A stretch of 64,000 nt of DNA from Candidatus Collierbacteria bacterium GW2011_GWB2_45_17 (GTDB lineage Bacteria > Patescibacteriota > Microgenomatia > UBA1400 > MFAQ01). Each line of letters starts with the position of its first letter. The first letter of the stretch is position 1. Below the pieces are notes generated by a model that worked only from the letters and a program-made list of their open reading frames with translations, had not been told where the DNA came from and did no database searches. The position numbers were made by a program, and so were the translations under genes. The stretch spans positions 9,381-73,380 of the forward strand of contig LCKO01000001.1 in NCBI GenBank assembly GCA_001001485.1, in the 5' to 3' direction. Below are positions 3,753 to 63,343 of the stretch, piece after piece.

Positions 3753-5405
3753 ATGTCTCAACTTAAGTTGATTCCTCTCGGCGGTGTTGGTTCGGTCACC
3801 AAAAATATGTACGTTTACGAATACGGTGATGACCAGTTGGTCATCGACTGCGGTATGGGCTTCCCCAAAGACAATGCTCTTGGTGTGGATTCAGTCATTC
3901 CCGACATTAGTTACTTGGAAAAACCGGGCAAAAGACTGCTCGGTATCGTTCTGACTCACCCTCACATGGATCACATCGGAGGCCTGCCTTACATTCTCCC
4001 TCGTCTCAAAGAGGTTGAGGTCTTTGGTGGCAAGCTAGCCATTGCCATGGCCGAAATTCGGGTTCGTGAGTTTGGCATTCCCAATCGTATGACTCCAGTC
4101 GAGGGAACACTGGATCTGGGACCTTTTCACATTCAGTTTATTCACTCGACTCACTCGGTCCCGAACTGTTTCCATTTATTAATCAAGACTCCGGCCGGAA
4201 CTGTCTATCACGGCGCCGATTACAAGTTTGATCTCACCCCTATCGACAATCTCCCTCCGGATCTAGGAGCCATGGCCGCCGCCGGCAATAACGGTGTCGA
4301 CCTTATGCTTACCGACTGCTTGGGTATCGAAAAGTCCGGTTTTTGTCCTTCGGAGAGAACTTTGATGGGAGCCATCGATAACGAAATCAGAAATACTCAG
4401 GGAAAACTTATCTTCACCACCATGTCTTCATCGATCTCACGATTTCAAATTGCTATCGACTCTTCGGTCAAGTACCATCGTCGCATCGCCATCATTGGTC
4501 GATCCGTCGAACAGAACATTGAGGCCGCCGCCAAAACCGGTTTTATCAAAATCCCGAATGGTGTTTTGATCAAACCTGCCCAGATTGCCGATCTGCCAGC
4601 CAATCAAGTCACCATTCTTATCTCCGGCTCCCAAGGCCAGTCCGGTTCAGCCATGCATCGGCTGGCTAACAACGAACATCGGCTGGCTAACTTGAAAAAA
4701 GGCGACAAGGTTATCATCAGCTCCAACGCTATCCCTGGTACCGGCAACGACGCCGACATTTTTGACCTTATGGACACCTTGTACAAAAACAGTATCGATG
4801 TTGTTTACTCCGGTACTTCGGAAAATCTTCACGTCTCTGGTCATGGCTACCGAGGTGACATGGCTCTACTGGCTCGTTTAATCCGACCCAGGAACATTAT
4901 CCCCATCGGTGGCGATCTCCGTCATATGATGCTTTATAAAAATCTTGCCAAAGATTTGAACATGGATGCAGAAAAGGTTTTTGTACTTTCCGAGGGTCAG
5001 TCCATCATTCTCGAAGACCATGTCGTTAAAGAAGGTCCCAAGTTCGAAACAAAAAATATCTATGTTGATGGTCTGGGTATCGGTGACGTTGGCACCGTGG
5101 TTCTACGTGACCGTCAGGTCATGTCTGAAGATGGCATTCTTCTCACGATTGTCCCCATTAGGCGCGACAACTCCCAGGTGGGCGGTGATATCGAGATTAT
5201 TTCTCGAGGCTTCGTCTATCAAAAGGAGTCTCAAGATCTCATTCGCGATGCCCGCAAGCAGGTGCAAAACTGTCTGAAAGATATCAAGGGACCGGCCACC
5301 GACTGGGGCTTCCTCCGAAAGAAGATCGAAAGCCAGCTGGAAAAATTTGCCTTCGACCATACCCAGCGCCGCCCCCTCGTCATCGCCATTTTGATCGAGG
5401 TTTAG
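3753..5405 (+). CDS. rnj: Ribonuclease J (beta-CASP metallo-beta-lactamase RNase)
   Basis: HPHMDHIGG motif, beta-CASP region, 550 aa, typical RNase J architecture. Confidence 0.8.
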   Translation: MSQLKLIPLGGVGSVTKNMYVYEYGDDQLVIDCGMGFPKDNALGVDSVIPDISYLEKPGKRLLGIVLTHPHMDHIGGLPYILPRLKEVEVFGGKLAIAMAEIRVREFGIPNRMTPVEGTLDLGPFHIQFIHSTHSVPNCFHLLIKTPAGTVYHGADYKFDLTPIDNLPPDLGAMAAAGNNGVDLMLTDCLGIEKSGFCPSERTLMGAIDNEIRNTQGKLIFTTMSSSISRFQIAIDSSVKYHRRIAIIGRSVEQNIEAAAKTGFIKIPNGVLIKPAQIADLPANQVTILISGSQGQSGSAMHRLANNEHRLANLKKGDKVIISSNAIPGTGNDADIFDLMDTLYKNSIDVVYSGTSENLHVSGHGYRGDMALLARLIRPRNIIPIGGDLRHMMLYKNLAKDLNMDAEKVFVLSEGQSIILEDHVVKEGPKFETKNIYVDGLGIGDVGTVVLRDRQVMSEDGILLTIVPIRRDNSQVGGDIEIISRGFVYQKESQDLIRDARKQVQNCLKDIKGPATDWGFLRKKIESQLEKFAFDHTQRRPLVIAILIEV

Positions 5406-5408
5406 CCA

Positions 5409-5440
5409 CTTGACTTCGGGTAATTTTTGGTAGTAAACTT
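5409..5440 (+). promoter_or_regulatory. Promoter-like element CTTGACTTCGGGTAATTTTTGGTAGTAAACT (-35 TTGACT, then a -10-like TAGTAAACT) immediately after the rnj stop, upstream of the HigBA-like cassette
   Basis: Sigma70-like hexamers; a near-identical copy lies at 6634-6664. Confidence 0.4.
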
Positions 5441-5483
5441 GTTGCAGATGTCAATTGACATTATGATAAATTTATCATAAAAT

Positions 5484-5780
5484 ATGAAACTAGAGATCGA
5501 CAAAAGAGTTCTTAATTTTCTCAAAAAAATCCCCCTCAAGGACTCCACGAAGGCTCTTAGTTACATCGAACTCTTCGAAAAATATCAGTTTAATCTGGAC
5601 GCCAGATATTTAAAAAAAGTGTCTGGTCCAGTCTGGGAACTAAGGCCAGGCAGAATAAGGCTTTACTTATTAGTCAAGTCACCCAGACAAATTGTTATTT
5701 ACGCTATTATCAAAAAATCACAAAAAATTACCAAAGCAGATCTAAAAACAATTCAGTCAAGGCTGAGCGAATATCTATGA
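5484..5780 (+). CDS. HigB-like toxin (RelE superfamily, phage Gp49-like/DUF891)
   Basis: 98 aa; VWELRPGRIRLYLLV...IVIYAIIKKSQKITKADL matches the Gp49-like toxin pattern; toxin-first order with a 4-nt overlap to an XRE HTH gene. Confidence 0.65.
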   Translation: MKLEIDKRVLNFLKKIPLKDSTKALSYIELFEKYQFNLDARYLKKVSGPVWELRPGRIRLYLLVKSPRQIVIYAIIKKSQKITKADLKTIQSRLSEYL

Positions 5781-6067
5781 AAACCAACCCAAAAACTATA
5801 TCTGTTTCAGAACTCAAAAAGGAGCTTCTAAAAAATAAAAACTTTAAACTTGAATACGAGTCCAAACTTCCTGAGTCTCAAATTGCCTGTCAAGTAATTG
5901 AGGCAAGGCTTAAACAAAACATGTCCCAGGTTGAGCTTGCAAACAAAATTCATTCCGGTCAGGCAGTTATCTCCCGCTTGGAAAGCTTGAACTCCAAACC
6001 ATCCCTCTCGCTTCTGATCAAAATCGCCAAAGCTCTCGACACAAAAATAAACCTATCGATCGGATAA
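5777..6067 (+). CDS. HTH XRE-family antitoxin (HigA-like)
   Basis: MSQVELANKIHSGQAVISRLE helix-turn-helix; ATGA overlap with the upstream toxin. Confidence 0.65.
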   Translation: MKTNPKTISVSELKKELLKNKNFKLEYESKLPESQIACQVIEARLKQNMSQVELANKIHSGQAVISRLESLNSKPSLSLLIKIAKALDTKINLSIG

Positions 6068-6116
6068 TCACACCCAGCGCCACCTCCTCGTCATCGCGAT
6101 TTTAATCGAGGTCTAA
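6068..6116 (+). repeat. Degenerate copy of the rnj 3' end, about 85% identical to 5357-5405; in frame it still encodes HTQRHLLVIAILIEV*
   Basis: Direct comparison with the rnj terminus CATACCCAGCGCCGCCCCCTCGTCATCGCCATTTTGATCGAGGTTTAG. Confidence 0.6.
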
Positions 6117-6122
6117 ATATTC

Positions 6123-6194
6123 GTCATTCCGAGTTTCGTACCCGAACCGAAGCAATCTCACTCTCTGTCATTCCGGGCTTGACCCGGAATCCAG
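6123..6194. repeat. Two adjacent hairpin repeats: GTCATTCCGAG...GAAGCAATCTCACTC, then GTCATTCCGGGCTTGACCCGGAATCCAG
   Basis: Inverted repeats TTCCGGG/CCCGGAA; the same families occur elsewhere in the window. Confidence 0.6.
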
Positions 6195-6223
6195 AAAATT
6201 AATTATTTTGATAAAATTCACGC

Positions 6224-6625
6224 ATGGTTAAAAATATTTCTATTGCTCTGTTTCACGATAAAGAATCGATTGTAATGCAAGATAGAAAATCTAGGTCAAA
6301 ATATGGTGAGAGGTATGGTTTTTGGGGTGGCGGTGTTGAAATAGGAGAAACTCCCCTAGAATCAATTAAAAGGGAATTAATTGAAGAGCTTGACTACAAA
6401 CCTCCCAAACTAATCTACTGGCGAGACTATAATTTTATTGTTGGCAACGACGACATTATTCTTCATCTGTTTTTATCGCCAATCACTCCAGAGTTACTTA
6501 AATCTCAAGTTTCCGAAGGTGACGGAGTGGTCAACTTTAGTTTTCAAGAAATACTTGCAAGTGAAAAATTTGACAAAATAGATAAAGCTATTATTTCTCT
6601 TTTAATTTCACATCTAAAAACATAA
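6224..6625 (+). CDS. NUDIX hydrolase
   Basis: Nudix box GGGVEIGETPLESIKRELIEELD. Confidence 0.6.
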   Translation: MVKNISIALFHDKESIVMQDRKSRSKYGERYGFWGGGVEIGETPLESIKRELIEELDYKPPKLIYWRDYNFIVGNDDIILHLFLSPITPELLKSQVSEGDGVVNFSFQEILASEKFDKIDKAIISLLISHLKT

Positions 6626-6633
6626 AGTAATCT

Positions 6634-6664
6634 CTTGACTTCGGGTAATATTTGGTGTTAAATT
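6634..6664 (+). promoter_or_regulatory. Second copy of the promoter-like element CTTGACTTCGGGTAATATTTGGTGTTAAATT, upstream of the Bro-N gene
   Basis: Identical to the 5409-5440 element apart from three substitutions. Confidence 0.4.
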
Positions 6665-6670
6665 GTAATT

Positions 6671-7498
6671 ATGGATACTTTAAACAGAATTGCAATTTTT
6701 CGGGGAAAGAAAATTAGAAAAGTTATTTTCCTCAACGAATGGTGGTTTTCTGTAGTAGATATTTGCGGAGCTCTTATCGATAGTCCAGATCCTGGTGCCT
6801 ATTGGAGAAAACTTAAACAAAGACTTATTTCAGAAGGAAGCCAAGTCGTGACATTTTGTCACGGGTTGAAATTACCAGCTCCTGATGGAAAAATGCGCGA
6901 AACAGATTGTGCTAACACCGAAGGCATCTTCCGTATCATCCAGTCCATTCCTTCTCCCAAAGCGGAGCCATTTAAAATGTGGTTAGCTAAAGTTGGTTAC
7001 GAAAGGGTTCAAGAGATAGAAGACCCAGAACTAGCCACCAAACGCACCAGAGCTCTCTACAAGGCCAAAGGCTATCCAGATTCCTGGATCGAAAAACGAA
7101 TGCGGGGTATTGTCATCCGCGAAGAATTAACCGAGGAGTGGCAACAAAGGGGAGTAAGGCAAAAAAAAGATTACGAAATTCTAACTTCCGAAATCTCCAA
7201 AGCCACTTTCGGCGTCACTCCCAAAGAATACAAAAATCTAAAAGGCTTAGAGCGCGAAAATCTAAGAGATCATATGGACGACTTTGAACTCATTTTTACC
7301 ATGTTGGGGGAGCGTTCTACTACCGAAATCCACCGCAATGAAAATTCCCAAGGCGTTCCAAAACTAAAAAAAGATGCCAACAGGGGAGGCAGAGTCGCAG
7401 GCGTTGCCAGAAAAGAGCTCGAAAAAGAAATCGGCAGATCAGTAGTAACAAAAACTAACTTCCTCTCAAAACCTAAAAAGAGATTGAAAGCCAGCTAG
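6671..7498 (+). CDS. Bro-N domain protein (phage antirepressor / DinD-like family)
   Basis: N-terminal FRGKKIRKV...EWWFSVVDICGALID...TEGIFRIIQSIPSPKAEPFKMWLAKV is the Bro-N signature; the C-terminal region is conserved as in Bro-N/DinD-like proteins. Confidence 0.6.
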   Translation: MDTLNRIAIFRGKKIRKVIFLNEWWFSVVDICGALIDSPDPGAYWRKLKQRLISEGSQVVTFCHGLKLPAPDGKMRETDCANTEGIFRIIQSIPSPKAEPFKMWLAKVGYERVQEIEDPELATKRTRALYKAKGYPDSWIEKRMRGIVIREELTEEWQQRGVRQKKDYEILTSEISKATFGVTPKEYKNLKGLERENLRDHMDDFELIFTMLGERSTTEIHRNENSQGVPKLKKDANRGGRVAGVARKELEKEIGRSVVTKTNFLSKPKKRLKAS

Positions 7499-7564
7499 AA
7501 AAATTTGCCTTCGACCACACCCAGCGCCGCCCCCCCAGTCATCGGCATCTTCATCGAGGTCTAG
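7477..7564 (+). repeat. Second, longer copy of the rnj 3' end (about 88% identical to 5318-5405), frameshifted; its first codons supply the stop of the Bro-N gene
   Basis: AAAGCCAGCTAGAAAAATTTGCCTTCGACCACACCCAGCGCCGCC... compared with the rnj terminus. Confidence 0.6.
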
Positions 7565-7580
7565 TTAACTCCTCCATCGT

Positions 7581-7603
7581 CCTGCAAGGACAGTCCTTGC
7601 AGG
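7581..7603. repeat. Perfect 10-bp stem hairpin CCTGCAAGGA-CAG-TCCTTGCAGG, no T-tract
   Basis: Inverted repeat seen directly. Confidence 0.4.
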
Positions 7604-7630
7604 CAAGAAAGCGACAAGGACTAAATAAGT

Positions 7631-8056
7631 TTAGATATCGGAGTTTGATCTGTAGATTACCCCTGAAAAGTAGTTATCAAGAGCATCCTTTGACGCTACA
7701 AATAGATTGTCGGGTAATTTACTTTCTGGGAACCATGTAAGTTCCGAGTGTATCTCCGGCTCCATGTTCTTAGGGGTTCCCTCATAAGACTCGGCTAGGA
7801 ATACAAAAACAATGTAGTGATTTCCCATTTTCATATTTGGGGTTACAGATACCAACTCACTAATTCTTACATTTATTCCGAGCTCCTCTTTACATTCTCG
7901 TGTCACACACTGTTCAAATGTCTCACCAAATTCAATGTGACCACCGGGTAATTCCCATTCTCCAAATCCAAACTCTTTCTTCCTTTTAGATAATAGAATT
8001 TCCCCCTTATCGTTTTTGATAATTATTTGCGTTCCCAAACCAATGTGTTTTTCCAT
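7631..8056 (-). CDS. NUDIX hydrolase
   Basis: Nudix box GGHIEFGETFEQCVTRECKEELG. Confidence 0.65.
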   Translation of the reverse strand: MEKHIGLGTQIIIKNDKGEILLSKRKKEFGFGEWELPGGHIEFGETFEQCVTRECKEELGINVRISELVSVTPNMKMGNHYIVFVFLAESYEGTPKNMEPEIHSELTWFPESKLPDNLFVASKDALDNYFSGVIYRSNSDI

Positions 8057-8058
8057 TT

Positions 8059-8673
8059 TTATATAATTTTTTCTAATTCTACAATGTTTCTTACTACATA
8101 ATCAGGGTTCTTATTTCTGAGTTTTTGCTCCATATTCAGACCCCATGTGACTGCAACAGATTTAACTCCTAGCTCTTTTCCCGCCATAATTTCATTGTAA
8201 CTATCTCCAACTATATAAGTATTATCGAAGTCAAGACTGTTTTTGTTGATTAGTTCCCGAAGGGCATCTGACTTTTCGTGAACCTTAGTCACAACATCGT
8301 CAAAAACACTATCAAGGTTAAATCTCTTTAGCTCAGGAAAAAACGAATCTGGCAAGTCAGACGTAATTACGGCCACATAATCACCCCGATTCTTAATTTT
8401 TTTAATCAGTGCTACTATTCCGGGGAATGCTCCAGCTTCAGGGTAGCCTTTGTCTGACACACCTTCCCTATATGCAGACTGTATTTCTTCAATATCAAGT
8501 TTTGGAAGATATTTTTTAAAAAAGATCATATAAGGCTCTTCCCAGCTCACTTTTAGCTCCTCAGCAGAAAGTTCTCTAATCTCATATTTTCTGAAAATTC
8601 TATTTACTACCCAGTGATGGCTATTAAAAGCATCTTTGATAACTCCAGATCAGTCAAAAATAATATTTTTCAT
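8059..8673 (-). pseudogene. HAD-family hydrolase interrupted by an in-frame TGA at codon 8 (MKNIIFD*SGVIKD...); paralog of the 326-964 HAD
   Basis: The reading frame is continuous from the ATG at 8673 through the ORF-track ORF 8059-8550 except for one TGA at about 8650-8652. The N-terminus matches IISDLGGV of the paralog. TGA is used as a true stop elsewhere in the window (alaS, sortase, rplX). Confidence 0.45.
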
Positions 8674-8729
8674 AGTTTCAATCGATTTTATCTAATAAGA
8701 GCATACATAGTTTATACTAGAAACTATCT

Positions 8730-10865
8730 ATGGCTCGTAAAAAAGGACGCCGTTCTAAACCCTACAAACTAAATCTTAAAAAGGACACCACAAACTCTGT
8801 CTTGGCCGTGATTCTCATGGGGATTGGCGGTCTCATTGCCATCTCATTTTCTCAACAGGGAGATTTGCTTACTAAAATCAACGAAATTGGTCAGCAATTT
8901 TTTGGTTGGCCTCTTCTTTTTCTCCCCTTTATTTTTATCGTCGGGGGTCTCATCATCACTCACGTCAAATTGGCCATTGCCTCCACCCACGTACTTCTTG
9001 GTAGTGTCGTCACCATGGTTTCACTTTCCGGCTTGTTCGGTACCGGTAGTCTGGGTCTCGGGATCAAAGAATCCGTGGTTTCACTTATTTCAGTCCCCGG
9101 GACCATCCTTTTTTATCTCGTAGGTACCGTGATCGGCATTTTTATTCTTTTTGAAACCTCCATCGAAGACCTTTTGGTCCTCGTTCGAAACATCGTCTCC
9201 GGATTGGACGTCGTTACTAGAAAGCTTAGAGGACTTGTCGGTATCAAAGGGAATACTCCTACTTTTTTAAATAAGAGTAACACCGTCAAAATTACCGGGG
9301 GTGATGAACCCGTTACGACTATTTCTCGCCAGACGGTTGAGCCGGTCAAAATTGTCAGCCGTGACCTTGGACATACTACGCAAGCCGTTCTTGAGACCAG
9401 GCGTTTACCGGACGGTGCCTCCGCCGGAGTCTGGCAGTATCCGCCGCTTACCTTGCTAAGTGATCAGAAGCTGGGTAAGGCTGACAGGGGTGACATCAAT
9501 AATAATATCGAAATCATCCAGAACACCTTGGCTTCTTTTGGTATCCAAGCTAAAGTTATGGAGGTTCACCAAGGTCCGGCTGTCTCCCAGTACGCTCTGG
9601 CGATCACCATGGGAACGAAGCTCAGCAAAATCAGTGCTCTTCAGTCCGATTTGGCTTTGGCCCTCTCCGCTCCCCAGGGGCAAATTCGTATCGAAGCCCC
9701 CATCCCTGGTCGCGATTTGGTTGGCATTGAGATTCCCAATCGGTCTCTAGAGTTTGTCTCACTTCGCGAGATGCTTTCCAAAAAAGTCATGCAAGAAAAT
9801 CGTTCCAAAACCGCTTTTTCACTCGGGCTAGATGTTTCCGGTCAAGAAGTTGTCGCCGATCTAGCCAAGATGCCTCACTTGCTCATTGCCGGCACTACCG
9901 GTTCCGGTAAATCTGTCCTAATCAACGCCATCATTTCCTCAATTCTTTTTCGAGCCTCTCCGGAGGAAGTTAAATTCATCATGGTCGACCCCAAACGGGT
10001 GGAACTTACTCCTTACAACGACATCCCCCACCTACTGACTCGAGTGATTACCGACGTTTCTAAAGTCAGTAACGCTCTCGGTTGGTTAGTGGTCGAAATG
10101 GAAAAACGCTACCGCCTTTTTGAAGAGCTGAAAGTCAAAAATATTGCCGGTTACAACGAAACGATCGGTTTTCAGACCATGCCCTTTATCATTGTCATCG
10201 TCGATGAAATGGCCGATATCATGATGTCCAAGAACGCCGGAGAAATTGAGGAAAAAATAGTCCGCCTGGCTCAGATGGCTCGGGCCGTCGGTATCCATCT
10301 GATTCTTTCTACCCAACGTCCCTCTGTCAACATTCTTACCGGTATCATTAAGGCCAATATCCCCGCCCGTATTGCTTTCCAGGTGACCTCCATGATTGAT
10401 TCCCGCGTCATCATCGACACCCCCGGTGCCGAAAAACTCCTTGGCAAAGGAGACATGCTTTACGTTCCGCCGGACATCGCCAAACCAAAACGTATCCAAG
10501 GCGCCTTTGTTTCCGATAAAGAAATTAAGACTCTTCTCGATTTTATTCGCCGCACCGGAGTTACTTCTCAGATGGACGACACCATCATTAAAGCCAAAGA
10601 ATCCCCCGGAACTCTTTCTGCTTCAGGCCAAAACCTAGGCGATGTTGACGACAAATTTGAGGAAGCGGCTCATTTGGTCATCGCTGAAGGTAAGGGTTCC
10701 GCCTCACTCCTTCAAAGACGTCTAGAAATCGGCTATGCCCGCGCCGCCCGCATTCTCGATCAATTGGAAATGGCTGGTGTCCTCGCTCACGCGGAAGGAA
10801 ACAAGCCCAGAGAAATCATTGTTAGTAGTCTGAGTGAAGTTTTTCCCGGTGAAGATAATTCATAA
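8730..10865 (+). CDS. ftsK: DNA translocase FtsK/SpoIIIE
   Basis: N-terminal TM helices, Walker A LLIAGTTGSGKSVLIN, C-terminal gamma domain LLQRRLEIGYARAARILDQLE. Confidence 0.8.
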   Translation: MARKKGRRSKPYKLNLKKDTTNSVLAVILMGIGGLIAISFSQQGDLLTKINEIGQQFFGWPLLFLPFIFIVGGLIITHVKLAIASTHVLLGSVVTMVSLSGLFGTGSLGLGIKESVVSLISVPGTILFYLVGTVIGIFILFETSIEDLLVLVRNIVSGLDVVTRKLRGLVGIKGNTPTFLNKSNTVKITGGDEPVTTISRQTVEPVKIVSRDLGHTTQAVLETRRLPDGASAGVWQYPPLTLLSDQKLGKADRGDINNNIEIIQNTLASFGIQAKVMEVHQGPAVSQYALAITMGTKLSKISALQSDLALALSAPQGQIRIEAPIPGRDLVGIEIPNRSLEFVSLREMLSKKVMQENRSKTAFSLGLDVSGQEVVADLAKMPHLLIAGTTGSGKSVLINAIISSILFRASPEEVKFIMVDPKRVELTPYNDIPHLLTRVITDVSKVSNALGWLVVEMEKRYRLFEELKVKNIAGYNETIGFQTMPFIIVIVDEMADIMMSKNAGEIEEKIVRLAQMARAVGIHLILSTQRPSVNILTGIIKANIPARIAFQVTSMIDSRVIIDTPGAEKLLGKGDMLYVPPDIAKPKRIQGAFVSDKEIKTLLDFIRRTGVTSQMDDTIIKAKESPGTLSASGQNLGDVDDKFEEAAHLVIAEGKGSASLLQRRLEIGYARAARILDQLEMAGVLAHAEGNKPREIIVSSLSEVFPGEDNS

Positions 10866-29022: not shown

Positions 29023-29871
29023 GTGATCACAAATTACTGCCCGATTTGTGGAGAATTGGTATTTAAAAAGCGAAAATTTTGTTCGGTTAAATGTAAGTCT
29101 GAAAGTCAAAATCAAAAGATTGAGTTAGAATGCACTGGTTGCGGTAACCATTTCAGGATATTGCCATATTTACAAAGGAAATCTAATTACTGCTCCGTCT
29201 CTTGCTATCACGACTCCACTAGGAAAAAAGAAATTAAAAATTGTCCGGTTTGCAGGAAGAATTTTTCAGTTATGGCGTGTTTAGTAAAGAAAGGTTTTGG
29301 AATTTATTGTTCTCAGAAATGTCGTTATAAAATTCACAGGAAGACTCAAGTTTGTTATCGATGCGGAAAGGAGTTTACTAGGGCATTATCATTATCTATT
29401 AAATATACAAAGTCATTTTGCAGTAAAAAGTGTTGCGACGACTCAACAAGGGAATATGTTTCGATATCGTGCCGCAATTGTCAGAAAATGATCTCAATTC
29501 CAAGAAGCACAATTAATCGAGGTAAGGGAGGATTCTGCTCCTGGTACTGTTATATCCACTATAAAGGCGAAACATCAATCGAAAAGATTGTGAGAATCCG
29601 ACTAAAAAAGGCCAAAATACCATTTGAACAAGAAGTTAAAATCGGTAAATACCATTCAGATTTTATGATCCAAAACACCAACATTCTGATTGAATGTGAT
29701 GGTGATTACTGGCACGGATTACCTTCAGCAATTGCCAAAGATAAGGTTCGAGATTTGATATTACGGACAAAAGGGTATGAAGTGCTTCGATTTACCGAGA
29801 CCGAGATAAAAAAGACAAAAGGAAACTGTGTTATTAATCAATTATCACAAAGGACAGACGTTAAGCAATGA
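29023..29871 (+). CDS. Zinc-ribbon-repeat protein with a C-terminal DUF559 (Vsr-like / restriction-endonuclease-fold) nuclease domain
   Basis: Five repeats of CxxC...x10-15...(F/Y)CSxxC, then IVRIRLKKAKIPFEQEV...SDFMIQNTNILIECDGDYWHG...DKVRDLILRTKGYEVLRFTETEI (DUF559 pattern). Confidence 0.55.
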   Translation: MITNYCPICGELVFKKRKFCSVKCKSESQNQKIELECTGCGNHFRILPYLQRKSNYCSVSCYHDSTRKKEIKNCPVCRKNFSVMACLVKKGFGIYCSQKCRYKIHRKTQVCYRCGKEFTRALSLSIKYTKSFCSKKCCDDSTREYVSISCRNCQKMISIPRSTINRGKGGFCSWYCYIHYKGETSIEKIVRIRLKKAKIPFEQEVKIGKYHSDFMIQNTNILIECDGDYWHGLPSAIAKDKVRDLILRTKGYEVLRFTETEIKKTKGNCVINQLSQRTDVKQ

Positions 29872-60510: not shown

Positions 60511-61329
60511 ATGACAAACGAATCGATAGTTATTTTTGAAAGTATAAAAAGGGTTAACGATGACAACAACGAGTTTTGGACGGCTCGAGCAATGGCTCGC
60601 GAGCTTGGTTATTCTGAATACCGTCATTTTTTACCAGTCATAGAAAAGGCGAAGCTTTCATGTAAAAATAGCGGTCAATCAATCAAAGATCATTTCGAGG
60701 ACTTCCTCGACATGATCGAACTTGGTAAAACAGCATCAAGAGAAATGTTAGACATTAAACTTTCCAGATATGCTTGTTATCTCATCATGCAAAATGCTGA
60801 TCCCTCAAAAGAGATCGTTGCCCTAGGGCAAACCTATTTTGCTATCCAAGCCAGAAAACAAGAGGTCCAAGAGCAGATTGTAGAAGACATAAAGAGAGTC
60901 GATCTCAGGGGAGAAATATCAATTCACAACAAACATCTCGCCGAAGCGGCCAGTATGGCCGGAGTGAGAAACTACGGATTGTTTACCAATTATGGCTATA
61001 GGGGTTTGTATGGTGGTAGGACGATGCAGGATATACAAAGGGTTAAAGGACTAAAGAAATCTCAGCAAATTCTTGACCATATGGGCAGTGAAGAACTAGC
61101 GGCAAATTTATTTAGAGCCACTCAAACAGATGCCAAAATCCGGCGTGAGAACATCCAAGGAGAAGCAAGGGCAAACGAAGCTCATCTTCAGGTAGGAAAA
61201 AAAGTCAGACAGACAATAAAAGATATTGGTGGTACCATGCCGGAAATCCTACCAGTCTCAGATGCAATAAATAAAGCCAAGACCAGAATAAAAAGAGGAG
61301 GAATCTCGTTGATAGAGGTAAAACCATGA
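60511..61329 (+). CDS. DNA-damage-inducible protein D (DinD)-like protein
   Basis: LSRYACYLIMQNADP, LGQTYFAIQARKQE, GYRGLYGG, KGLKKSQQILDHMGSEELAANLFRATQTDAKI match the DinD family. Confidence 0.6.
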   Translation: MTNESIVIFESIKRVNDDNNEFWTARAMARELGYSEYRHFLPVIEKAKLSCKNSGQSIKDHFEDFLDMIELGKTASREMLDIKLSRYACYLIMQNADPSKEIVALGQTYFAIQARKQEVQEQIVEDIKRVDLRGEISIHNKHLAEAASMAGVRNYGLFTNYGYRGLYGGRTMQDIQRVKGLKKSQQILDHMGSEELAANLFRATQTDAKIRRENIQGEARANEAHLQVGKKVRQTIKDIGGTMPEILPVSDAINKAKTRIKRGGISLIEVKP

Positions 61330-62479: not shown

Positions 62480-63343
62480 ATGTATGAGATCGAAGTAATC
62501 TGTGACCACTGTAAAAAAGAATTTGAGAGACCATTAGGGAGATTCAACGAAGCCGTGAAGTTTGGCTGGAAACAATTTTGTTCGGCAGAATGCCAATCAA
62601 AATCAAAGTCTAAAAAGATATCAAAAATCTGTGATAATCCAGTGTGCCATAAATCAATATTGGCTAAGAAAACAACCAGCTATACATACTGTTCGAGAAA
62701 TTGTAGCGCAACTCACAACAATTTATTGAGGTTAAAACCATTTGTTTTGGAAAAGTGTGCCAATAAAAACTGTAACAATTTTCTCAGAAATCACGAATGT
62801 AAGTATTGTTCTAGAGATTGTGTCAATAAGTCCAAAAAAGGTCTGTCTTCGTATTCAAAAGAAAAACTAATACAAATTATTCAAAAGTTTCAACTAGATA
62901 ATGGAAGAATTCCTACCAAAGCAGAACTAGGATATCTCAATAGACCTGCAAGAAACATTTTTGGTTCTTGGAACAAAGCTGTTAAAGCTGCCGGCTTCAT
63001 ACCCAACAAAGTCATTTTTTCTAAAAAGTTTACAGCCAACGATGGTCATATCTGTGATTCTTTGTCAGAAAAAATCGTCGACGATTGGTTATCCGCTAGA
63101 AGCATAAAGCATGAAGTTCACATTAGGTATCCCTGGAAAAACGGTATGTCCGCAGACTTCAAGATTGGTAAATATTGGGTAGAGTTATTTGGTCTTACAG
63201 GTCAACTTAAAAAGTACGATAGCTTAATGAGAACAAAGTTAGAATTAATCAAACAATATAATCTCAAGCTAATCAGTTTGTACTTATCAGACATTTTTCC
63301 CGTTAACCATCTTGATAAAAAATTATCCCTATTGCGAAAATAA
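62480..63343 (+). CDS. Zinc-ribbon-repeat protein with a homing-endonuclease-associated-repeat-like segment and a C-terminal DUF559-like nuclease domain; paralog of 29023-29871
   Basis: Three CxxC...(F/Y)CSxxC repeats as in 29023-29871; GRIPTKAELGYLNRPARNIFGSWNKAVKAAGF; the C-terminal ADFKIGKYWVELFGL...QYNLKLISLYLSDI aligns with the DUF559 block of the paralog. Confidence 0.5.
   Translation: MYEIEVICDHCKKEFERPLGRFNEAVKFGWKQFCSAECQSKSKSKKISKICDNPVCHKSILAKKTTSYTYCSRNCSATHNNLLRLKPFVLEKCANKNCNNFLRNHECKYCSRDCVNKSKKGLSSYSKEKLIQIIQKFQLDNGRIPTKAELGYLNRPARNIFGSWNKAVKAAGFIPNKVIFSKKFTANDGHICDSLSEKIVDDWLSARSIKHEVHIRYPWKNGMSADFKIGKYWVELFGLTGQLKKYDSLMRTKLELIKQYNLKLISLYLSDIFPVNHLDKKLSLLRK

Follow-up and report, generated by a model that had tools for sequence, protein, structure and literature searches.

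In Collierbacteria, the short gap that separates two essential genes, rnj (encoding RNase J) and ftsK, is a hotspot without recombinases, where small accessory genes are gained and lost; its cargo is made up mostly of toxin-antitoxin pairs and candidate single-gene defence genes. In the window (the whole 64-kb stretch of Candidatus Collierbacteria DNA analysed here), we propose, with a probability of roughly 0.6, that homologous recombination, with its anchor in rnj, has stacked alternative gap alleles on one another, together with an illegitimate join within the end of the resident rnj. Dead relics are all that is left of the displaced gene ends, and each retains the 3' hairpin and flank that it had in its earlier allele (Table 1).

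Table 1. Features of the rnj-ftsK locus in the window
Feature	Position	Strand	Description
rnj (RNase J)	3753..5405	+	Intact functional gene, left border of hotspot; Pfam RNase_J_b_CASP, RNase_J_C, Lactamase_B
Switched-affinity 3' tract of live rnj	5277..5405	+	L015/L169-like; putative homologous-recombination tract running into 31-mer and higB
rnj-end copy 1	5318..5405	+	Part of the live gene, repeated downstream
31-mer no. 1	5409..5439	+	Promoter-like: TTGACT, 18 nt, TAAACT; precedes higBA
Palindromes TGTCAATTGACA and TGATAAATTTATCA	5448..5483	+	Overlap a TTGACA-17-TAAAAT match; promoter scan 11/12
higB-like toxin gene	5484..5780	+	Gp49/HigB family; Pfam PF05973, 39.7 bits
higA-like antitoxin gene	5777..6067	+	HTH_3, Pfam PF01381; 4-nt overlap with higB
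Junction A	6065..6072	+	Join of the higA stop and its flank with position -49 of rnj
rnj-end copy 2	6069..6116	+	48-49 nt relic; in frame, without start codon
Two 3'-end hairpins	6121..6198	+	Type A 6123-6158, type B 6167-6192; fold -22 kcal/mol, z -2.5
Nudix hydrolase gene	6224..6625	+	Pfam NUDIX; PADLOC candidate family PDC-S07, 39.8 bits
31-mer no. 2	6634..6664	+	Promoter-like: TTGACT, 18 nt, TAAATT, with TG; precedes Bro
Bro-N/DinD-like gene	6671..7498	+	Pfam Bro-N; phrog_15286 full length, 316 bits; PADLOC candidate PDC-S13, 400 bits
Junction B	7470..7486	+	Join of the 3' end of Bro with position -88 of rnj, inside AARAAGA microhomology
rnj-end copy 3	7477..7564	+	88-nt relic, frameshifted
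Native-type rnj downstream flank	7565..7604	+	AACTCCTC, then strong hairpin 7581-7603; fold -22 kcal/mol, z -4.2
Second Nudix gene	7631..8056	-	Pfam NUDIX, 82 bits; PDC-S07, 69.5 bits; low GC
HAD-family phosphatase gene	8059..8550	-	Pfam HAD_2; low GC
ftsK with conserved short leader	8712..10865	+	Right border of hotspot; Pfam FtsK domains recorded for the called gene

The window carries three rnj ends

Repeat search and alignment located three copies of the rnj terminus exactly where an earlier note on this DNA had described a triplicated gene end, a 17-mer of the repeat being matched three times where 0.02 matches are expected. Copy 1 belongs to the live gene, which is 80-90% identical in amino-acid sequence to its Collierbacteria orthologues. 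Copy 2, whose left limit stretches to 6065 by profile match, shows 87% identity with the native end across 47 nt and translates as HTQRHLLVIAILIEV*; its equivalent in L038 lies at 2115-2170, after higA. Copy 3 agrees with the native end at 89-92% of positions and is thrown out of frame by a 1-nt insertion; its closest match is copy 1 of the window itself (0.90), followed by L146 and L015 (0.85).

The structure is not an assembly artefact, because independent assemblies carry the identical sequence: contigs of ENA ERZ27254728 and NCBI GCA_003488215.1 match the window at 100% identity across 8 kb, the exact Bro protein, fused tail included, occurs in 34 blocks of the sequence collection (24 contigs were read), and the arrangement is fixed and identical across all sampled contigs of the window's population.

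The toxin-antitoxin, Nudix and Bro-N genes that the earlier note had called between the copies all hold by Pfam. Homologues of higB (82-90% amino-acid identity) occupy the same gap in L004, L015, L019 and L038, whilst the Bro-N gene, judged by its C-terminus against that of L146, takes its final five codons and stop from the out-of-frame copy 3; a comparison of Bro with solved structures gave no match. The second Nudix gene has no homologue in the rnj-ftsK gap of the other loci compared and, together with the HAD gene, presumably belongs to the oldest resident allele. Homology with all relatives picks up again at ~8712, ftsK being 70-88% identical in amino-acid sequence. GC content is 34-40% in the blocks versus ~49% in the flanking genes; the low-GC island reaches ~8700, taking in the reverse-strand Nudix and HAD genes.

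A shared promoter-like element opens the cassettes

The same 31-mer does stand before both the toxin-antitoxin pair and the Bro gene, as had been claimed, and has no further copy in the whole 64 kb; the two 29-31-nt copies (5409-5437/5440 and 6634-6662/6664) are 90% identical, and a 23-mer taken from them is found twice against 0.01 expected. Cassette homology begins exactly at these elements, at 5409 for higBA (versus L015, L019, L038 and L004) and at 6634 for Bro (versus L021, L022, L146 and L070). Judged by its pattern, the 31-mer is a predicted cassette promoter (-35 TTGACT, 18-nt spacer, -10 TAAAYT), and it stands ahead of various cargo genes in many other genomes, with PDC-S13, PDC-S05, PDC-S22, HigB and NYN as its single-gene defence candidates. 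Units of 31-mer plus Bro are present at unrelated loci too, and the element is a promoter type common to similar genes in related CPR bacteria, not an att or recombination site. Where it directly adjoins the cargo ORF, as it does for Bro, the start codon lies ~33 nt past the GACTTCGGG core; in higBA cassettes the start codon is farther downstream, and the palindromic region at 5448-5483, kept in five of five such cassettes, is probably the HigA operator region.

Gap alleles are modular among relatives

Our comparison covered 34 loci of the Collierbacteria clade with both rnj and ftsK. In 18 of these rnj directly precedes ftsK, with a gap of no more than 60 nt that holds only the ftsK -10 box; six have a gene-free gap of 86-186 nt, and the remaining ten bear a gene-carrying insert. 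The fillers are higBA, Bro-family, DUF559, zeta-like kinase, mini GIY-YIG, HAD and unknown genes, those of the Bro family being commonest and found in both orientations. Cassettes are polymorphic and modular, as the earlier note had anticipated, and both cassette-free alleles and other copies of the 31-mer exist elsewhere, unlike the picture that the note had said would speak for an old local duplication. Neither the scanned ORFs of occupied gaps nor the 28 window ORFs scanned yielded a recombinase (integrase, resolvase or transposase), the latter result in agreement with the earlier remark that the window holds no integrase.

Most higBA and Bro alleles in the gap have no duplicated rnj end: L146 and L022 run rnj, 31-mer, Bro, ftsK, and L004, L015 and L019 carry the 31-mer and higBA. 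Relics at the hotspot measure 88 and 46-49 nt, ~21 nt (L027, L126) and 12 nt (L092), and every one contains the last 12 nt of rnj (ATCGAGGTNTAR); by estimate, ~0.01 chance matches to the short relics are expected in the search, which took in 88,490 nt of gap sequence. Two classes of junction are near nucleotide-identical between loci, higA/rnj in the window and L038, and Bro/rnj in L027 and L126. The former closes a unit of 31-mer, higBA and rnj end whose homology stops exactly at the relic stop codon; in L038 this cassette does not adjoin rnj on its left, 190 nt lying between, and rnj is 60% identical in amino-acid sequence versus 79% nucleotide identity for the cassette. L092 and L126 present a mirror-image case, in which whole gap alleles are stacked with an ftsK-proximal segment (U) in triplicate; block 2 of L092 opens with the last 12 nt of rnj and ~90 nt of native flank. 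In L021, Bro is fused to the last three codons of higB, followed by higA, a further illegitimate fusion.

Junctions, hairpins and a mosaic gene end

Junction A reads GGATAA/TCACACCCAGCG in the window and GGATAA/TACCCAGCG in L038, and may contain a (GACC)ACACC microhomology, if the parental flank was L015-like; its identity by descent in the two genomes is only moderately supported, by the higA identity of 0.79 to L038 against 0.73-0.77 to the others. Junction B (Bro of L146, CCCAAGAAGAAGCTATAA; rnj, CCGAAAGAAGATCGAAAGCC; window, CCTAAAAAGAGATTGAAAGCC) falls within the Bro ORF and destroys its native stop, converting KPKKKL* to KPKKRLKAS*. The microhomology is short at either junction, and relatives, not true ancestors, supplied the ‘parental’ sequences.

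The hairpins behave as lineage-typical 3'-end hairpins. Nine hairpins of this family occur in the window; every one is on the + strand, and those that were checked sit immediately 3' of an ORF end. The order A plus B recurs after the native rnj stop of L038. The flank at 7565-7604 is similar to those following native rnj stops in L015, L021 and L014. All three rnj copies lead into sequence of the sort that follows native rnj stops in relatives, as in L146 for copy 1, L038 for copy 2 and L015 for copy 3.

The live rnj is itself a mosaic. A maximum chi-squared breakpoint lies near 5277, ~130 nt ahead of the stop, where the identity of the gene to L015 goes up from 0.755 to 0.907, a switch reached in 0 of 300 permutations; the breakpoint is loosely placed (~5230-5318) and may fall on the boundary of the 88-nt repeat. 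Over 5176-5405 the identity is 0.857 versus 0.753 upstream (Fisher p=2e-4), and none of the other relatives compared gives a similar switch. Past rnj, identity to L015 is 0.92 in the 31-mer and leader and 0.84 in higB, while higA is closest to L038 (0.79 overall and 0.81 over its last 150 nt, others 0.73-0.77); this points to homologous tracts that cross the border between gene and cassette.

Discussion

Drawing these observations together, we suggest that three alternative gap alleles were concatenated head to tail: X (rnj, 31-mer, higBA), Y ([rnj end], two hairpins, Nudix, 31-mer, Bro) and Z ([rnj end], hairpin, Nudix(-), HAD(-), ftsK), the last of which was not found alone in any sampled genome. 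On the left side of each addition, homologous recombination within rnj would bring in a complete gene end; on the right side, an illegitimate join at a short microhomology would fuse the incoming allele, at its right edge, with the resident rnj 49 or 88 nt ahead of the stop codon of that gene. We infer both this mechanism and the order of events. The incoming DNA was probably acquired by natural transformation, natural competence and insertion by homologous recombination having been demonstrated in Patescibacteria (PMC10633639). The earlier view of successive additions at the rnj 3' end, each pushing an older gene end downstream, is supported; of the two roles offered there for the repeated end, that of homology arm lies closer to the evidence, and that of att-like target is not supported.

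An att-like target would imply that a recombinase whose gene lies elsewhere serially inserted integrase-less (CIME-like) elements at the 3' end of rnj, every element bringing a mimic of the rnj end, much like prophages and islands at the 3' ends of tRNA or protein genes. Direct repeats of the gene end do bound each block and leave rnj intact, the same junctions recur in the window and L038 and in L027 and L126, empty sites exist among relatives, and the 12 nt common to all relics could conceivably be a common core. We nonetheless think this unlikely, given the lack of a recombinase among the scanned ORFs of window and gaps, the predominance of cassette-bearing alleles without a repeat, four relic lengths that would need four target specificities, a junction B that cuts short its own cargo ORF, an imported tract that reaches past the repeat into the cassette, and the ftsK-side mirror-image duplication, which it leaves unexplained. 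Nor did two viral-contig scans, for the 31-mer core and for the rnj-end pattern, reveal a viral carrier; the single match of each was rejected, L189 for its non-promoter-like context and lack of similarity to the window, and L219 as a GC-rich chance match without rnj. Somewhat more doubtful is an integrase-free exchange in which host RecA loops out a cassette between two rnj ends as a circle with a single copy, and this circle or a corresponding linear fragment re-enters any rnj-bearing genome by homologous crossover, making the conserved rnj end a portable homology arm, effectively an att site for host recombination. Its sequence outcome is the same as, and not distinguishable from, that of the stacking we favour, homologous recombination is clearly active across the border of rnj and cassette, and shared units fit (31-mer, higBA and rnj end, ending at the relic stop codon, in the window and L038; Bro plus relic in L027 and L126). 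However, the L038 cassette is set apart from rnj by its 190 nt, most cassettes lack a relic, RecA works poorly on arms of only 12-49 nt with 80-90% identity, no circular form was observed, and the initial duplication would still require an illegitimate event.

Homing-like spread, modelled on a free-standing homing endonuclease, would have a gap protein (Bro/PDC-S13, DUF559 or GIY-YIG) cut the empty site, with repair copying the cassette and flanking rnj and, when occasionally aberrant, leaving duplicated gene ends. The abundance of Bro-family genes in either orientation, the endonuclease-type genes of some gap alleles and the tract in rnj, which resembles co-conversion, are in keeping with this; but no nuclease domain was detected in Bro (Pfam gives only Bro-N, no solved structure matches, and the protein's family is of unknown function), higBA-only alleles spread without Bro, and 31-mer-plus-Bro units occur at unrelated loci, so that we hold it to be very improbable. 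We give just as little credence to a wholly local origin, in which the gap was duplicated in tandem long ago in one lineage and then diverged and had genes replaced without foreign import. The fixed arrangement in the window's population and the closeness of copy 3 to copy 1 would suit it, yet the blocks between the repeats are unrelated to one another and differ in GC from the flanking genes, the rnj end is a mosaic, and other species carry these cassettes at levels of identity that do not follow the divergence of rnj, L038 being an example.

Finally, we regard this locus as an instructive example of how a hotspot can grow without a recombinase, and not as a new kind of mobile element. The outcome of the proposed stacking fits homology-facilitated illegitimate recombination (HFIR), documented with 3-10-bp joints in other competent bacteria (PMC6382021), or, equally, unequal crossover between two different alleles.

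A hotspot between rnj and ftsK

Our survey, which took one genome per species and returned 80 rnj (RNase J) loci, places the window in Candidatus Collierbacteria and gives an ancestral order of a 458-aa gene (reverse strand), rnj, ftsK and an HTH gene. The gap between rnj and ftsK varies from 4 nt to 8.2 kb across the 80 loci and from 0 to 3.3 kb within the Collierbacteria clade. Of the 34 clade loci in which a single contig holds both genes, 18 have an empty gap (≤60 nt) with the ftsK -10 box alone, six have a hairpin-only gap (86-186 nt) and ten carry genes; since true empty and filled alleles both occur, with polymorphism of presence and of content between core-gene flanks, the gap is a hotspot. 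The presence/absence polymorphism that the earlier note had anticipated among relatives is therefore real, being provided by the 18 cassette-free alleles. Toxin-antitoxin (higBA) genes lie in the gaps of four compared loci (L004, L015, L019, L038), Bro-family genes in another four (L021, L022, L027, L146) and inverted Bro-family genes in six (L038, L092, L126, L100, L162, L179), with a DUF559 endonuclease, a zeta-like kinase, a mini GIY-YIG gene, HAD genes and unknowns as further fillers. The allele of L146 and L022 reads rnj, 31-mer, Bro, ftsK.

In the window, GC content falls from ~49% in the flanking genes to 34-40% across an island whose low GC extends to ~8700, and which also holds a reverse-strand Nudix gene and a HAD gene. 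Pfam assigns rnj to RNase J and, among the island genes, returns a HigB(Gp49)/HTH_3 pair, NUDIX and Bro-N, bearing out the identities first proposed for the toxin-antitoxin pair, Nudix and Bro-N from sequence alone. The toxin gene (PF05973) precedes and overlaps the antitoxin gene (PF01381) by 4 nt, the arrangement of a type II HigBA pair, and we take this to be a predicted system. Rfam gave no credible RNA family over 5200-8800. The possibility of an assembly artefact is negligible and was rejected, as independent deposits are identical to the window: it is 100% identical over 8 kb to contigs of two other deposits, while a Bro protein with exactly the fused sequence described below is indexed in 34 blocks of the sequence collection. 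Coordinates of these and other features, including small accessory genes elsewhere in the window, are collected in the table.

Table. Positions of features in the window and in loci of other genomes (L-numbers)
Feature	Locus	Position	Remark
rnj-end copy 1	window	5318-5405	last 88 nt of rnj
rnj-end copy 2	window	6069-6116	last 48-49 nt; 87% identical; reading HTQRHLLVIAILIEV plus stop retained
rnj-end copy 3	window	7477-7564	89-92% identical to rnj end; 1-nt insertion, hence frameshift
31-mer, two copies	window	5409-5439, 6634-6664	
Hairpin family GTCATTSC...GSAATCY	window	6123-6192, 16813, 16891, 43812, 46122, 46334, 46920, 59944	mostly just 3' of ORFs
Exact 15-nt direct repeat CATCGGCTGGCTAAC	window	4656-4691	inside rnj; spacing 21; gives duplicated HRLAN peptide
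DUF559/MTES_1575 restriction-endonuclease-like gene	window	29023-29871	small accessory gene amid core genes
DinD gene	window	60511-61329	NF008573, 347 bits; PDC-S13 model PDLC04919; no 31-mer in this genome
HNH-repeat (homing-endonuclease-associated repeat) gene	window	62480-63343	adjoins tRNA-Pro(GGG); accessory gene amid core genes; Pfam PF18780, a domain common to one 31-mer cargo cluster
ftsK-proximal 75-nt segment	L092	733-805, 1556-1630, 2590-2668	
ftsK-proximal 75-nt segment	L126	1812-1886, 2846-2924	two copies on contig
Hairpin array in rnj-ftsK gap	L006	12270-12550	two hairpin types alternating; 119-nt period
Bro-family ORF with higB end	L021	7950-8967	
Tandem paralogous genes	L070	5168-8797	three genes for membrane-anchored proteins; middles divergent

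Displaced gene ends as probable relics of resident alleles

The triplication of the rnj end was recovered where it had first been reported, with copy 3 frameshifted, and a 17-mer derived from the repeat matches three times in the window, where 0.02 matches are expected. With a profile of Collierbacteria rnj termini, non-native ends were found twice in the window, once in L038 (directly after higA) and nowhere else; most cassette-bearing alleles, whether of higBA or Bro, have no rnj-end repeat. Rather than att sites, we argue, the copies would be what is left of alleles that once resided here, because of their flanks, a broken cargo gene, their varied lengths, a ‘mirror image’ at the ftsK border and a gene fusion in L021.

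Each copy has the downstream flank of a different allele: copy 1 is followed by CCA and the 31-mer, as in L146; copy 2 by a type-A and then a type-B hairpin, as after the native rnj stop of L038; and copy 3 by AACTCCTC and a hairpin, as in L015. As the hairpin pair behind copy 2 is that behind L038's native stop, we rejected copy 2 as the right end of a higBA element in favour of the resident allele's old gene end. Nine hairpins of this family occur in the window, all on the coding strand; those compared with the ORF list lie directly 3' of ORF ends. One member, GTCATTCCGGGCTTGACCCGGAATCCAG, shows 100% identity across genomes with only 75-80% identity in their genes; a terminator, a stabiliser or a miniature mobile repeat are candidate functions for the family.

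The cargo gene is broken at the Bro/copy 3 junction, such that Bro ends in KPKKKL in L146 and L022 and in KPKKRLKAS in the window, where it runs out of frame into copy 3. This junction lies inside AARAAGA, which the Bro 3' end and rnj at -88 have in common, with relatives standing in for the parental sequences; the higA/copy 2 junction, at rnj -49, is compatible with ACACC-type microhomology if the parental flank resembled that of L015. Relic lengths are 88 nt (window), 46-49 nt (window, L038), ~21 nt (L027 and L126, in both after a Bro-family gene) and 12 nt (L092), and every relic includes the last 12 nt of rnj; by our own estimate, ~0.01 short relic matches are expected by chance in the 88,490 nt of gap sequence searched. 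The L038 relic was also considered as an import from the window's clade, an idea we dropped since the identities differ so little (0.87 vs 0.83 over 46 nt).

At the opposite border, a 75-nt segment whose native place is right beside the ftsK start (a hairpin plus the ftsK -10 box) occurs in three copies in L092, separating stacked gap alleles. In the second block of L092, the 12 terminal nt of rnj come first, then ~90 nt of the flank natively found behind rnj, and this block is fused without a break to the ftsK-side segment before it. In L092 and L126, entire gap alleles are joined head to tail, as the mirror image of the rnj-end triplication. In L021, the Bro-family ORF ends in the last three codons of higB (..KYL, then stop) and higA follows directly; an illegitimate fusion would explain this, as would a new kind of Bro/HigA pairing.

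A mosaic rnj

Most of the window rnj is 74-78% identical to every close relative. Over its last 230 nt it becomes more similar to L015 and L169, with identity going from 0.75 to 0.86 (Fisher p=2e-4), a rise that was not seen against any other relative compared; the best breakpoint, near 5277, separates identities of 0.755 and 0.907, and was reached by none of 300 permutations. The affinity to L015 carries on through the 31-mer (0.92) and higB (0.84). By contrast, higA, next to copy 2, has its highest identity with L038 (0.79-0.81) and its lowest with L015 (0.73). These patterns support a higA/relic junction common to the window and L038 by descent, and a later homologous tract that would have run from within rnj into the cassette. 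A homologous anchor accordingly sits on one side of the acquired DNA, as in homology-facilitated illegitimate recombination (HFIR).

A shared promoter type ahead of the cargo

The 31-mer reported ahead of higBA and Bro was found at both places, with no further copy in the 64 kb. Its core is TTGACTTCGGGTAWTNTTTGGT followed by a TAWWAT-type box (also in loci L081-L188), and the homology of cassette DNA between the window and other genomes starts exactly at this element, for higBA and Bro alike; it is not present at empty rnj-ftsK sites. A scan of metagenome contigs with the core returned 108 stretches, so that the element does recur elsewhere, before varied cargo. The start codon lies 33-34 nt after the core in most AT-rich matches, and the flanks provide TT ahead of GAC and a TAWWAT-type -10, so the element reads as a putative sigma-70-like promoter for leaderless or near-leaderless mRNA. 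Its promoter score and fixed distance to most cargo starts uphold the promoter-like role originally ascribed to it; on the same grounds, and by inspection, we rejected Xer/dif-like or attC-like readings of the 31-mer, and of the hairpins because these follow ordinary genes.

The cargo behind the 31-mer comprises 25 Bro-N, 11 RhuM, 6 DinD, 5 NYN, 4 HNH-repeat and 3 KilA-N genes, 2 Y-family polymerases, 2 HigB and a few others. Many of these match PADLOC PDC families of single-gene candidates, which are defence predictions by embedding (bioRxiv 10.1101/2024.01.29.577857): Bro (400 bits) and DinD (359 bits) match PDC-S13, RhuM PDC-S05 (488 bits) and KilA-N PDC-S22 (318 bits). The window Bro is a full-length match to the candidate family (PDLC04920 of PDC-S13, 399.5 bits, residues 1-270) and matches phrog_15286 over its full length, and both window Nudix genes match PDC-S07 at 40-70 bits. 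Gap cargo therefore consists of toxin-antitoxin genes and PDC candidates, with no validated defence system among the matches. As the 31-mer fronts one kind of gene, it is a shared promoter type and not an att site, and one widespread in CPR bacteria. Its near-invariant spacer suggests an operator, possibly for a damage- or stress-responsive regulator; the DinD and Y-family polymerase genes in the cargo make an SOS-box reading a lead, although no palindrome is evident. Orthologues of the window's DinD gene do carry the 31-mer in L093, L095, L108, L127, L180 and L187.

Flanking repeats were found at three of 33 31-mer cassette sites tested (window, L092 and L070), and we rejected them as a general signature. 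Those of L070 are three tandem paralogous genes and were rejected as insertion scars; the paralogues are near-identical at their 5' ends (136 nt, 90%) and at their 3' ends (53 nt, 98%), with a HicAB-like pair and a 31-mer-plus-Bro unit lodged between them. Conserved ends may favour the stacking of alleles at L070 too.

Around 20 of the 108 core matches belong to an unrelated, conserved GC-rich element, CGCCATCCCCGCGACGAAGACGGAACGCGGCTGGGAGATG-GACTTCGGGTATTGTTTGGTG-CGGGG, which contains the core by accident and stands ahead of many unrelated ORFs (L096, L102, L104, L105, L116, L117, L123, L128, L129, L133, L137, L140, L142, L148, L156, L159, L164 and L173). Rfam gave no match at these sites; the element may represent a structured RNA or, alternatively, a recombination site used in some other group of organisms.

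A model for allele stacking and its rivals

Synthesising the relics and the mosaic tracts, we propose, with a probability of roughly 0.6, that gap alleles were stacked by a homologous event on the rnj side coupled with an illegitimate event on the other. The illegitimate joint would lie 12-88 nt before the end of the resident rnj. The product, whose rnj comes complete with the incoming DNA and whose ftsK is the resident's intact copy, would thereby be viable. We suggest that only short relics are seen because joints further downstream would be scarless, and longer duplications unstable. This mechanism, which we infer from sequence, has an outcome that matches either HFIR (PMC6382021) or unequal crossover between two alleles, the two being indistinguishable in sequence. 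By analogy, natural transformation is a plausible route, since competence and recombinational insertion have been demonstrated in Patescibacteria (PMC10633639), namely in Saccharibacteria only, another lineage than that of the window (PMC10633639); com and recA genes lie outside the 64-kb window.

Two other readings draw on the same pair of observations, namely that two junction classes are common to different genomes at the nucleotide level and that the last 12 nt of rnj are common to all relics. Site-specific integration by a trans-acting recombinase would account for both, yet Pfam scans found no tyrosine/serine recombinase among 28 window ORFs, island genes included (the window lacking an integrase, as had been observed at the outset), and no recombinase or transposase among the selected gap ORFs scanned in relatives. 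Nor is there a constant flanking block of identity, given the four relic sizes and the many repeat-free insertions. With no recombinase among the scanned ORFs and no constant repeat, the site-specific insertion proposed in the earlier note is not supported, nor is its likeness to stacked integrative cassettes, for the locus fails those defining features of integrase-borne elements that were tested; we consider such integration unlikely. Two scans of viral contigs returned no phage-borne carrier of the rnj end or the 31-mer. The one match to the 31-mer core (L189) has a non-promoter-like context and no similarity to the window, and the one match to the rnj-end pattern (L219) is GC-rich, lacks rnj and is attributed to chance; Bro-family proteins do occur in 26 viral contigs, but at 26-68% identity only, and a viral source was rejected.

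The second of these readings, which we judge quite unlikely, dispenses with an integrase: 31-mer-led, single-gene candidate defence cassettes would move with a copy of a conserved gene end, the rnj end (or, opposite, the ftsK leader) serving as a portable homology arm, with host RecA looping out circles between repeats and a homologous crossover then admitting them into any relative with rnj. Were this so, the end of an essential gene would become a universal att site on which host recombination acts, and the common 31-mer could confer coordinated, stress-responsive expression on the whole islet. Homing-like spread and a purely local duplication both seem to us very improbable.

How hotspots between core genes are assembled without mobile-element genes is an acknowledged question still open (PMC10250203). 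Here, a tiny CPR hotspot retains its builders' scars, in the form of gene-end and leader relics of differing length, a fusion of a cargo ORF to a relic, and mosaic tracts. These scars point to ordinary homologous and illegitimate recombination having stacked whole alleles, rather than to a dedicated recombinase, and they yield a concrete model, open to testing, of how reduced and probably competent Patescibacteria gain accessory genes; a conserved promoter is also flagged ahead of a candidate defence-gene family in Microgenomates-type CPR bacteria.

Comparison with known systems

The locus is a miniature core-gene-flanked hotspot in a CPR genome, and no new class of element. Like integron arrays and CALINs, it holds one- or two-gene units in series, with toxin-antitoxin cargo; unlike them, it has no intI among scanned ORFs and no attC-type site at cassette 3' ends, its 3' hairpins, by inspection, starting GTCATTSC without a GTTRRRY core and following ordinary genes across the window. 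Units also occur in both orientations among relatives and each has its own 5' promoter, whereas integron cassettes are mostly promoterless. The locus would therefore appear to lack the defining features of integrons and CALINs.

Integrases insert at gene 3' ends with tandem accretion, as in prophages and islands at tRNA/tmRNA genes and in ICE/CIME accretion at fda in Streptococcus thermophilus. Direct gene-end repeats on both sides, a restored target gene and repeat copies between stacked units are all likenesses; differences are the absence of an integrase from the scanned ORFs, the variable repeat lengths, a junction inside a cargo ORF, the predominance of repeat-free insertions and the mirror-image duplication at the opposite border. 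Paquin, Laforest and Lang reportedly described, in 1994, a mobile ORF in Allomyces that had entered the 3' end of the mitochondrial atp6 gene, so that a duplicated C-terminal coding piece was displaced. There too, incoming DNA gives a new gene end and the old one stays downstream as a pseudogene fragment; that case, however, involves an endonuclease ORF and an organellar genome, and no nuclease is implicated here.

HFIR in natural transformation (de Vries & Wackernagel 2002; Prudhomme et al. 2002; Meier & Wackernagel 2003), as outlined in PMC6382021, likewise has one homologous anchor (here rnj), one illegitimate joint with few-base microhomology (here putative) and foreign DNA beside the anchor. 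Against that outline, the joint here falls upstream of the anchor's end, so that part of the anchor is duplicated instead of resident DNA being deleted, and the case is one read from natural scars.

The closest parallels are hotspots flanked by core genes, namely cDHS1/cDHS2 of Pseudomonas aeruginosa (PMC10250203) and the defence-island hotspots of E. coli (PMC10121019), for which transfer through homologous flanks has been proposed (PMC10250203, PMC10121019). Common to all are variable content between two core genes, empty and differently filled alleles, GC below that of the flanks and no mobile-element hallmark genes. The present locus differs in its far smaller size (0-3.3 kb within the clade, compared with a median of 26 kb) and its reduced CPR genome, in its cargo of toxin-antitoxin genes and PDC candidates in place of validated systems, and in its boundary relics, both rnj ends and ftsK leader, which here would record the stacking of alleles.
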